The notes beneath the pieces were generated by a model that searched no databases, was not told the DNA's origin, and worked only from the letters and a program-made list of their open reading frames with translations. Below, in pieces: positions 2,329-4,331 of a stretch of 4,331 bases of DNA. Source of the DNA: a virus (taxonomy: Duplodnaviria > Heunggongvirae > Uroviricota > Caudoviricetes); the IMG/VR virus record IMGVR_UViG_2706794682_000011, one strand, 5' to 3'. Position 1 is the first letter of the stretch; each line of letters begins with the position of its first letter. A program made the translations under genes and the position numbers.

Positions 2329-2712
2329 ATGCGTGATATTCAGATGGTTCTTGAGCGTTGGGGAGCGTGGGCGGCTAATAATCATGAAGATGTGACCTGG
2401 TCGTCCATTGCCGCCGGTTTTAAGGGATTAATTACTTCAAAAGTAAAATCTCGCCCGCAATGTTGTGACGATGACGCGATGATTATTTGCGGGTGCATGG
2501 CCCGTCTGAAAAAGAACAACAGCGATTTGCACGATTTATTAGTAGATTATTATGTAGTCGGTATGACATTCATGTCACTGGCAGGTAAGCATTGCTGCTC
2601 TGATGGTTATATCGGGAAAAGGTTACAGAAGGCTGAGGGCATAATTGAAGGGATGTTAATGGCATTAGATATCCGGTTAGAGATGGATATCGTTGTTAAT
2701 AACTCTAATTAA
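2329..2712 (+). CDS. quuD: Q-like late-gene antiterminator QuuD (YbcQ), 127 aa
   Basis: ATG at 2329 with GGAG 7 nt upstream. Translation [24 protein letters not shown]...[16 protein letters not shown]...IVVNNSN matches DLP12 QuuD. The ORF-track TTG at 2314 adds 5 residues and was not chosen. Confidence 0.9.
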
Positions 2713-2900: not shown

Positions 2901-3947
2901 TTAGAACTGGTAAACCATACCTACAGCAACGATATCATCGGTAGCAACGCCAGATGCTTTCGTGAAATCGCTCTTATCAATCAGGTTGATTTTGTAATCA
3001 ACAAAAGTGGACATATTTTTGTTGAAGTAATAGGTTGCACCTACATCAATATATTCAACCAGGTCCTGATCACCCCACGCACCCAAGTCTTTTCCTTTAG
3101 ATTGCAGGTAAGCAACGGACGGACGCAGACCGAAGTCGAACTGATATTGTGCAACTACTTCGAAGTTTTGTGCTTTGTTGGCAATATGGTTATTACCAAA
3201 AACAGTCATGTTCTGGGTTTCAGAATAGGTGGTAGCCAGATAGATGTTGTTCGCATCATATTTCAGACCAGCTGCCCATACTTCAGCATTTTGACCAGAT
3301 GCATTCAGGCTGTTGTTACCGTAGATAACCTGATTATTAGTGCGGTCAGATTTAGCATAGGTTGCACCTACACCGAATCCTTCATACTCATAAGTAGTGG
3401 AGAAACCGAAACCATCACCATTAGCTTCAGTTACGTCAGTGCGGTCATTTTTACCCTGATACTGAGCAGCAAAGTTCAGACCATCAACCAGACCAAAGAA
3501 GTCGTTGTTACGATAAGTTGCAACACCAGTGGTGCGACCAGTCATGAACACATCTGTTTGAGTCCAAGTGTCACCACCGAATTCTGGCAGGACGTCAGTC
3601 CACGCACCGATGTCGTATGCTACACCGTAGTTACGGCCGTAATCGATGGAGCCGTAGTCACCGAATTTCAGGCCAGCGAAGGCAAGACGGGTTTTATCTT
3701 TGGAGGAACCTTGAGATTCAGCGCGGTTGCCTTTGAATTCATATTCCCACTGACCGAAACCAGTCAGTTGATCGTTGATTTGGGTTTCACCTTTGAAGCC
3801 AAGACGGGCATAAGTAGTATCACCATCATCTGCATCATTAGAGGAGAAGTAGTGCTTAGCATTAACTTTCCCGTACAGATCCAGCTTGTTACTGTCTTTA
3901 TTATAAATTTCAGCTGCCTGAGCAGACATCGCCATCAGTACTGATGC
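2901..3947 (-). CDS. nmpC: outer-membrane general porin of the NmpC/Lc (OmpC/OmpF/PhoE) family; 5' end truncated by the N gap
   Basis: Translation has the mature N-terminus [17 protein letters not shown] and the canonical C-terminus ...VAVGMVYQF with a terminal Phe. The frame stays open above the ORF-track Met to the gap edge (..[11 protein letters not shown] is signal-peptide-like), so the true start lies in or beyond the Ns. Stop TAA at 2903..2901. The C-terminus is intact. Confidence 0.95.
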
Positions 3948-4043
3948 NNNNNNNNNNNNNNNNNNNNNNNNNNNNNNNNNNNNNNNNNNNNNNNNNNNNN
4001 NNNNNNNNNNNNNNNNNNNNNNNNNNNNNNNNNNNNNNNNNNN
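3948..4043. other. run of 96 N: assembly or scaffold gap of unknown true length
   Basis: Counted directly as 96 consecutive n characters. It removes the porin start codon, the first part of its signal peptide and the proximal promoter. Confidence 0.95.
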
Positions 4044-4117
4044 ATTAACGGCTGTTATTTATAAGTGCTCTATAATTTGAAGGTTCAATTTAAACCGGCT
4101 AAAAATAACACTGGAAA

Positions 4118-4139
4118 TTATTTGTTGGTTATTTGTTGG
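4118..4139. repeat. perfect tandem direct repeat, 2 x TTATTTGTTGG, with further ATTTG motifs just downstream
   Basis: TTATTTGTTGG at 4118-4128 and again at 4129-4139, followed by GATTTGCTTATGTATTTGTAG. It lies in the AT-rich region expected to be upstream of the porin gene. Confidence 0.5.
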
Positions 4140-4228
4140 GATTTGCTTATGTATTTGTAGTGGTGTTTTCAATACTCGGTAGCATTCTCGCAAATATCAT
4201 TTAGTGGTTTACGTACGTAAAAAATTGG

Positions 4229-4331
4229 GGTAATGACTCCAACTTATTGATAGTGTTTTATGTTCAGATAATGCCCGATGACTTTGTCATGCAGCTCCAC
4301 CGATTTTGAGAACGACAGCGACTTCCGTCCC
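4229..4331 (-). mobile_element. IS1 insertion sequence, right-end terminal 103 bp including the terminal inverted repeat; element continues beyond the window
   Basis: The reverse complement of 4229-4331 is GGGACGGAAGTCGCTGTCGTTCTCAAAATCGGTGGAGCTGCATGACAAAGTCATCGGGCATTATCTGAACATAAAACACTATCAATAAGTTGGAGTCATTACC, which matches the IS1 right end as I recall it. The terminal inverted repeat GGTAATGACTCCAACTTATTGAT starts at 4229. Confidence 0.85.
4244..4331 (-). CDS. insB: IS1 transposase InsB, 3' end only (C-terminus ...GRKSLSFSKSVELHDKVIGHYLNIKHYQ)
   Basis: Minus-strand frame ends at TAA (4246..4244) and encodes the recalled InsB C-terminus. The 5' part is outside the window. Confidence 0.75.
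   Translation of the reverse strand, partial: GRKSLSFSKSVELHDKVIGHYLNIKHYQ

Follow-up and report, generated by a model that had tools for sequence, protein, structure and literature searches.

A close described counterpart of the locus analyzed here is the PR'-tR' cassette of Stx phages of the Sakai/Q933 type, the source of the small RNA StxS, in which the late promoter PR' follows the antiterminator gene Q and precedes the late genes; its landmarks are a start site mapped by dRNA-seq, an RNase E site (GU/AUU) at +173 and the 3' end of tR' at +258 (PMC7547250). Phage 21 has its Q-binding element between the -35 and -10 hexamers, and base pairs -21 and -13 are both required for antitermination (PMC6606751). 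The DLP12 prophage of E. coli K-12 has the gene order ybcN-ninE-ybcO-rusA-ylcG-quuD-nmpC-essD-rrrD-rzpD. DLP12 and phages PA-2 and 434 differ from the Sakai cassette in having a porin gene on the opposite strand between Q and PR', in having lysis genes ~120 nt past the first hairpin, and in lacking the 258-nt leader and second terminator of Sakai. DLP12 of K-12 carries IS5 in the 3' end of nmpC, and the IS5-in-nmpC form is present in phage 434. As for the insertion sequence considered below, IS1 prefers AT-rich targets and usually duplicates 8-9 bp of the target. Promoters of hybrid origin generated by IS1 were reportedly described by Prentki et al. in 1986; the ends of the element carry an outward -35 that makes a hybrid promoter with a properly spaced -10, as upstream of afaA in E. 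coli ST131 (PMC8764528).

The window (the whole 4,331-nucleotide stretch of DNA analyzed) is a lambdoid prophage segment with ybcN/ninB (839-1294), ninE, ybcO, rusA, ylcG and quuD on the plus strand, followed by a porin gene on the minus strand. Its gene order is that of DLP12-type prophages, to which it is ~91% identical at the nucleotide level and from which the RefSeq names ybcN, ninE, ybcO, rusA, ylcG, quuD, essD, rrrD and rzpD are taken; the last three are lysis genes that lie on the plus strand downstream of the insertion described below. Relative to DLP12 of K-12, the lineage of the window has an intact porin gene, an IS1 in the putative PR' instead, and a different left end. The features needed at this point are as follows.

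2329 to 2712, plus strand: quuD, late-gene antiterminator Q of the Q21/Q933W family, cognate to the putative PR' (PF06530, E=3.5e-53; 78% identical to the Q of Sakai Sp5; distant match to Q21 structures)
2901 to 3947 (visible part), minus strand: prophage porin gene (nmpC/lc/OmpC-like), with its stop codon at 2901-2903 and its ATG at ~3983 inside the N-run; 360 aa in relatives, Pfam Porin_1, annotated as a porin in relatives
3948 to 4043, no strand: run of 96 N that replaces 241 nt (241-242 across relatives)
4044 to 4228, no strand: AT-rich DNA between the porin gene and PR', of which the distal 185 nt are visible and the proximal part lies under the N-run; 100% match to relatives with an empty site, GC 27-35%

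Two small, low-GC genes lie on the minus strand between the replication region and ninB, encoding a 125-aa protein (197-574) and a 142-aa neighbor (1-196, running off the left end of the window) with predicted membrane character. Searches for Pfam and PADLOC families gave no significant match to either protein, the sole match being a below-cutoff one of the 142-aa protein to 7TMR-DISM_7TM.

Relatives with the arrangement of the window were located by means of the exact 125-aa protein. This gave four NCBI assemblies (L005, L007, L010 and L014). Of these, L005, L007 and L014 are identical to the window; in L007 the identity is 100% to the left as well as to the right of the N-run. Read from L007, the N-run hides the porin start codon, 35 further nucleotides of signal-peptide coding sequence, the ribosome-binding site and ~205 nt of the proximal upstream region. 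Genomes without a single difference from the window on either side of the run also have the 241-nt spacing, and distances measured across the N-run of the window are 145 nt too short. In L007, in window orientation, the ATG codons of the porin gene and of the holin gene essD are at 13787 and 15136, which places the IS1 390 nt upstream of the former and 190 nt upstream of the latter.

The last 103 bp of the window are 100% identical to other IS1 copies, and comprise the following features, listed with the adjoining direct repeat.

4221 to 4228, no strand: left copy of the 8-bp target-site duplication AAAATTGG, at positions -21 to -14 of the putative PR'; repeated after the IRL end in L007, L005, L010 and L014
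4229 to 4331, minus strand: right end (IRR) of an IS1, of whose 768 bp the window includes only the last 103; 100% identity to IS1 copies
4229 to 4251, no strand: terminal inverted repeat IRR, GGTAATGACTCCAACTTATTGAT in direct reading, whose partner at the opposite end of the element in L007 is the IRL GGTGATGCTGCCAACTTACTGAT
4244 to 4330, minus strand: the C-terminal 28 codons of insB' plus the stop codon, with the translation GRKSLSFSKSVELHDKVIGHYLNIKHYQ before the stop

The terminal inverted repeats of IS1 are ~23 bp long (GGTAATGACTCC.../GGTGATGCTGCC...), and both were found, IRR in the window and IRL in L007. The transposase genes point leftwards, on the same strand as the porin gene. Thousands of matches among 5,426 complete E. 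coli genomes represent IS-free relatives, which are identical to the flank through 4228 and diverge after it, so that the left boundary of the IS1 is right to the base. The full element occupies 14178-14945 in L007 (768 bp, window orientation), where the InsA and InsB' frames are open and the A6C programmed-frameshift motif is present; judged from these frames, the copy is apparently functional. The copy at the same site is 768 bp long in L014 and has a 304-bp internal deletion in L010. That of L005 (CP104423.1) is 769 bp long, with A7 in place of A6 in the frameshift motif, giving an in-frame InsA-InsB' fusion of 232 aa; this allele is explained either by a sequencing error in the homopolymer or by a constitutive fusion of the transposase.

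In all four assemblies AAAATTGG stands on both sides of the IS1, and the flank to the right of the element continues exactly as in IS-free relatives, where AAAATTGG is present once. A viral-contig locus (L053) has the same insertion with the same 8-bp overlap. The event is a simple insertion of a complete IS1 with an 8-bp target duplication. An earlier note, made from the window alone, had proposed that 4229-4331 is an IS1 end with its inverted repeat and the InsB C-terminus, that it adjoins an AT-rich region, and that it lies inside the Q-to-lysis interval of a prophage. All of this stands, and the two comparisons that the note had called for have now been made: window-identical genomes supply the other IS1 end, completing a 768-bp element with its 8-bp duplication and thereby ruling out the short unrelated fragment that the note had allowed for, and thousands of IS-free genomes define a clean empty site with a single AAAATTGG. 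The distance of ~280 bp that it gave from the porin gene must be revised to 390 nt, since the 96 N stand for 241 nt. In its terminal repeat, InsB C-terminus, length of 768 bp, insA, insB', A6C motif, duplication in the 8-9 bp range and AT-rich target, the element is no different in structure from IS1 in general; the insertion site alone is particular.

That the junction is an artefact of assembly, with the IS1 end joined to this flank by repeat collapse or a mis-join, was considered because the window stops in a multi-copy repeat and the length of its N-run does not match that of relatives. This is almost certainly not the case: both junctions, the same 8-bp duplication and collinear flanks recur in four independent NCBI assemblies and one viral-contig record, and three of the four assemblies are megabase-scale records with CP accessions (4.5-4.9 Mb). 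Also very unlikely is a composite unit bounded by IS1, with this copy as one arm and the nin-Q-porin segment as cargo. The reverse complement of L007 does have a 231-bp IS1 fragment at 9239-9469, 336 bp to the left of the window and in direct orientation; however, this left copy is a fragment without one of its ends, the 8-bp duplication flanks a single full IS1 and not a pair, and the gene order of the segment is the ordinary prophage order of IS-free relatives.

The fragment at 9239-9469 is the IRL end of an IS1 and is followed by IS21 and sucrose (csc) genes. The absence of the replication/immunity half of the prophage is consistent with an IS-mediated deletion. The idea that the window is a repeat-bounded short-read contig does not strictly hold, as 336 bp separate the nearest IS1 fragment from its left edge.

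The target of the insertion is an ~85-nt block that spans the insertion point and a hairpin and is conserved in three gene contexts downstream of genes for QuuD-family Q proteins. Each context has the same order: a QuuD-family Q gene, a differing insert on the opposite strand, the block, and late genes on the plus strand. The inserts are the porin gene in the DLP12, PA-2 and 434 types, two hypothetical genes in Stx2a_1447 and one hypothetical gene in PhiR40_1, and the block is followed either by lysis genes or by methylase-tRNA-stx2. The contexts cease to be homologous directly past the hairpin. An additional ~1.3 kb of DNA separates Q from the block in one viral-contig locus (L089). Within the block, four of the five aligned sequences have TTTAC(G/A) followed, at a spacing of 16 bp, by TAT(G/C)(C/G)T, the first hexamer being CTAACG in Stx2a_1447; sequence hardly varies from the -10-like hexamer through to the hairpin, and the same holds for the +1 to +45 region. 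The elements on the window side of the junction are:

4208 to 4213, plus strand: native -35 hexamer of the putative PR', TTTACG, conserved in DLP12-type, PA-2, PhiR40_1 and Sakai homologues
4216 to 4223, plus strand: spacer motif CGTAAAAA at positions -26 to -19, conserved and, by analogy with phage 21, a candidate Q-binding element; its C, G and A-run are invariant across the three contexts and it is also present in Sakai

In the alignment the spacer motif has the pattern CG-AAAAA-T. In coordinates of the DLP12-type locus L001, the -35 is at 5165-5170, the -10 at 5187-5192 and the +1 at 5199.

The block is 77% identical over 83 nt to sequence at the 3' end of Q in Stx phages of the 933W/Sakai type, which enabled it to be aligned with a mapped promoter. 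The published Sakai coordinates (PMC7547250) refer to NC_002695.1 and were placed on version.2 by internal landmarks, with an implied shift of +142. A single placement fits all three landmarks, with GTATT at 1217 and the start site at 1046 of the Sakai locus (L181) and +258 falling on a clean terminator T-run. The start site is an A seven bases after TATCAT, and a consensus scan of the Sakai homologue independently gave TTTACG-16-TATCAT with 9/12 matches. Together with the 78% identity of the Q proteins, the landmark fit and the scan indicate that in this Q family the block serves as late promoter PR' and leader. By homology to the promoter mapped in Sakai, the insertion target would be PR', and alignment to Sakai puts the junction between 4228 and 4229 at PR' positions -14 and -13. 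The DLP12/PA-2/434-type PR' is thereby placed by homology to the PR' of a Stx phage, with which it shares a homologous Q, the -35, the spacer motif, the -10, the initial transcribed region and the first hairpin. An alternative -10, AAAAAT in the A-run, was rejected; its -35 region is unconserved, and the Sakai start site fits TATCAT/TATGCT. The spacer motif was also searched for a TGAGCA-like direct repeat, with none found, and no clear -10-like pause hexamer was seen; Rfam gave no family for the interval, its sole match being a sub-threshold Trp-leader (E=0.17). The literature searched gave no start-site, Q-binding or expression data for a DLP12-type prophage.

The hairpin is terminator-like, with an 8-bp GC-rich stem and a T-run (L001 5223-5244, 38 nt to the right of the insertion point), and is the only such match in the porin-essD interval. 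Its homologue in Sakai Sp5 (L181 1069-1097, against L001 5223-5250), at +24 to +45, is evidently read through without Q, giving the 258-nt transcript. The strength of the hairpin as a terminator in DLP12-type prophages is uncertain on that account, and considerable basal transcription may leak into the lysis genes, given that there is no second predicted terminator before essD in these prophages.

The insertion has split this putative promoter. A distance of 776 bp now separates the -10 (TATGCT), with the leader, hairpin and lysis genes that follow it, from the native -35 (TTTACG) and from five of the eight bases of CGTAAAAA. Spacer positions -26 to -22 (CGTAA) remain on the porin side, their place on the lysis side being taken by TCACC of IS1, and only the last three bases of CGTAAAAA are carried to the promoter side, by way of the duplication. 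In place of the native -35, an outward-facing TTGGCA in the IS1 left inverted repeat, 8 nt from its tip, lies 17 bp upstream of TATGCT. This putative hybrid promoter, TTGGCA-17-TATGCT, passed the consensus scan with 9/12 matches whereas the native site failed with 8/12, a difference that concerns geometry only, the match counts of these scans being no higher than in shuffled sequence. Like the IS1 hybrid promoters already described, it has an outward -35-like hexamer in the 16-18 bp range from a resident -10. Unlike in those, its resident -10 was already part of a working promoter, so that -35 and spacer are swapped and no silent gene is activated.

We consider it likely, on this evidence, that a complete IS1 in the PR' spacer of a DLP12-like prophage remnant has left the lysis cassette no longer Q-inducible, with basal transcription possibly kept. 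In the mechanism envisaged, a simple IS1 insertion into the PR' spacer lies upstream of essD-rrrD-rzpD, which the antiterminator QuuD would control. The hybrid promoter may still support basal initiation. Loading of Q would probably be impaired, since characterised Q systems have their Q-binding element between -35 and -10, and the cassette would then lose Q inducibility. Plus-strand transcripts from farther upstream would be blocked by the IS1 or would have to cross it; InsA binds the IS1 repeat and could repress the hybrid promoter. An example of such an upstream start is the "+1" of an earlier study, placed by its primers near L001 4844 (PMC7918800).

The earlier note had suggested two consequences, a change in porin expression through promoter disruption or read-through, and uncoupling of the late genes from Q. 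The second has fared better, and gains from the location of the insertion within PR' itself (-14/-13), although the loss of Q control would still have to follow from that location. By homology, the empty site lies within PR'. For the first, the position lends no support: at 390 nt from the ATG, the insertion leaves the proximal upstream region unchanged. The geometry is thus corrected to that of an element inside the late promoter rather than in the regulatory region of the porin gene.

A main effect on the porin gene, whether by displaced regulatory DNA, by relief of AT-rich silencing or by read-through from the transposase genes, nevertheless merits discussion, and we judge it unlikely. Transposase and porin genes are on the same strand, so that read-through into the porin gene is possible in principle; against this, IS1 transposase transcription is weak and autorepressed. 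The region is AT-rich, but the proximal 390 nt are unchanged, and include a CRP-like site 109-129 nt upstream of the ATG. Finally, a distal CRP-like site is now beyond the IS1. This site comes from the 1986 record of phage PA-2 (J02580.1), which annotates a "CRP binding site" upstream of lc at 1730-1750, equivalent to L001 5200-5220, beyond the right end of the window. It coincides with +2 to +22 of PR', a stretch conserved in phages that have no porin gene, which makes it an unlikely porin element; the annotation probably reflects the late-promoter leader and not porin control. With the proximal region untouched, any effect on the porin gene would be indirect and small.

An appreciable possibility is that the insertion into PR' has no consequence at all, being one of many IS1 copies in a decaying remnant in which PR' was already irrelevant because Q is unexpressed. 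The lineage represented by L005, L007 and L014 has lost the early region and has an IS1 fragment, IS21 and csc genes to the left; the missing early region means that Q may never be expressed in the lineage, which would make the insertion functionally silent. Supporting this possibility, the 20-kb neighborhood in these three assemblies contains several IS1 copies and fragments as well as IS21, IS3-family and IS4 elements, the replication/immunity region of the prophage is absent, IS1 and other insertion sequences have independently entered quuD, the porin coding sequence and this interval in other strains, and the AT-rich target fits the preference of IS1. On the other hand, quuD and the porin, holin and endolysin genes are all intact in the lineage; in L007 the holin and endolysin genes translate intact and an Rz/spanin gene is called. 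Moreover, PR'-type promoters have been reported to be constitutively active in lysogens (PMC7547250), and the DLP12 lysis genes to be expressed in K-12, with phenotypes (PMC7918800). With intact genes and such reported activity of the promoter and lysis genes, an insertion in the promoter need not be silent. Neutrality bears on the consequence alone and is compatible with the structural finding.

Independent IS insertions into this cassette occur in other strains as well. IS1 is found in quuD in strains MB22 and NMBU-W13E19, in the porin coding sequence in strain 3359 and in the porin signal sequence in JNEC-KY204. Three independent insertions fall within 24 bp of PR': that of the window (-14/-13) and two others.

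L101 (E. coli 3359), ~4949/4950: IS66-family element (ISEc23), at PR' -18/-17
L002 (E. coli MS20675), 5204/5205: IS1, at PR' +6/+7

Either a hot spot due to AT-richness or selection against the promoter could account for this apparent clustering. A bolder reading, which we regard as doubtful, is that the PR' spacer is a recurrent target where insertion sequences are retained as they disarm or rewire a still-lethal lysis cassette, with the -35 of IS1, which InsA could regulate, replacing control by Q. If true, this would be a case in which an insertion sequence has domesticated the late promoter of a prophage and has become fixed in a successful lineage of pathogens.

The IS1 junction occurs in none of the 5,426 complete E. 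coli genomes and in no record of the phage and plasmid collections searched, and an exact-junction scan of one-genome-per-species contigs gave no match. Among 76 viral-contig loci with an identical quuD and long enough to judge, 75 have the empty site and one (L053) the insertion. A search of viral contigs for relatives with divergent Q gave near-identical quuD genes only, which serve as a population sample and not for footprinting. For the exact 125-aa protein and its cluster, most source names are Shigella sonnei; these names, together with the absence of the junction from complete genomes labeled E. coli, suggest that the lineage is probably Shigella sonnei and that the allele is rare and lineage-restricted. 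Such an insertion is a well-known kind of event, and this allele and its position in PR' appear undescribed in the literature and data searched.

The lysis genes of DLP12 are linked to vesicle production and biofilm phenotypes, and homologous PR' leaders yield regulatory small RNAs in EHEC. A lineage, probably of Shigella sonnei, that carries this allele would have an intact holin-endolysin cassette whose native Q-dependent promoter is split and possibly replaced by an IS1 hybrid. The allele is a natural test case and involves no new mechanism, its origin being routine IS1 biology. Relatedly, in Shigella phage SfIV (KC814930.1) an IS1 end (35851-35959) is preceded by the same six nucleotides, AATTGG, and ~1.5 kb away, at 37511-37575, the PR' leader is present from -7 onwards without the upstream half of the promoter; the same promoter may have undergone a related rearrangement there, in association with IS1.
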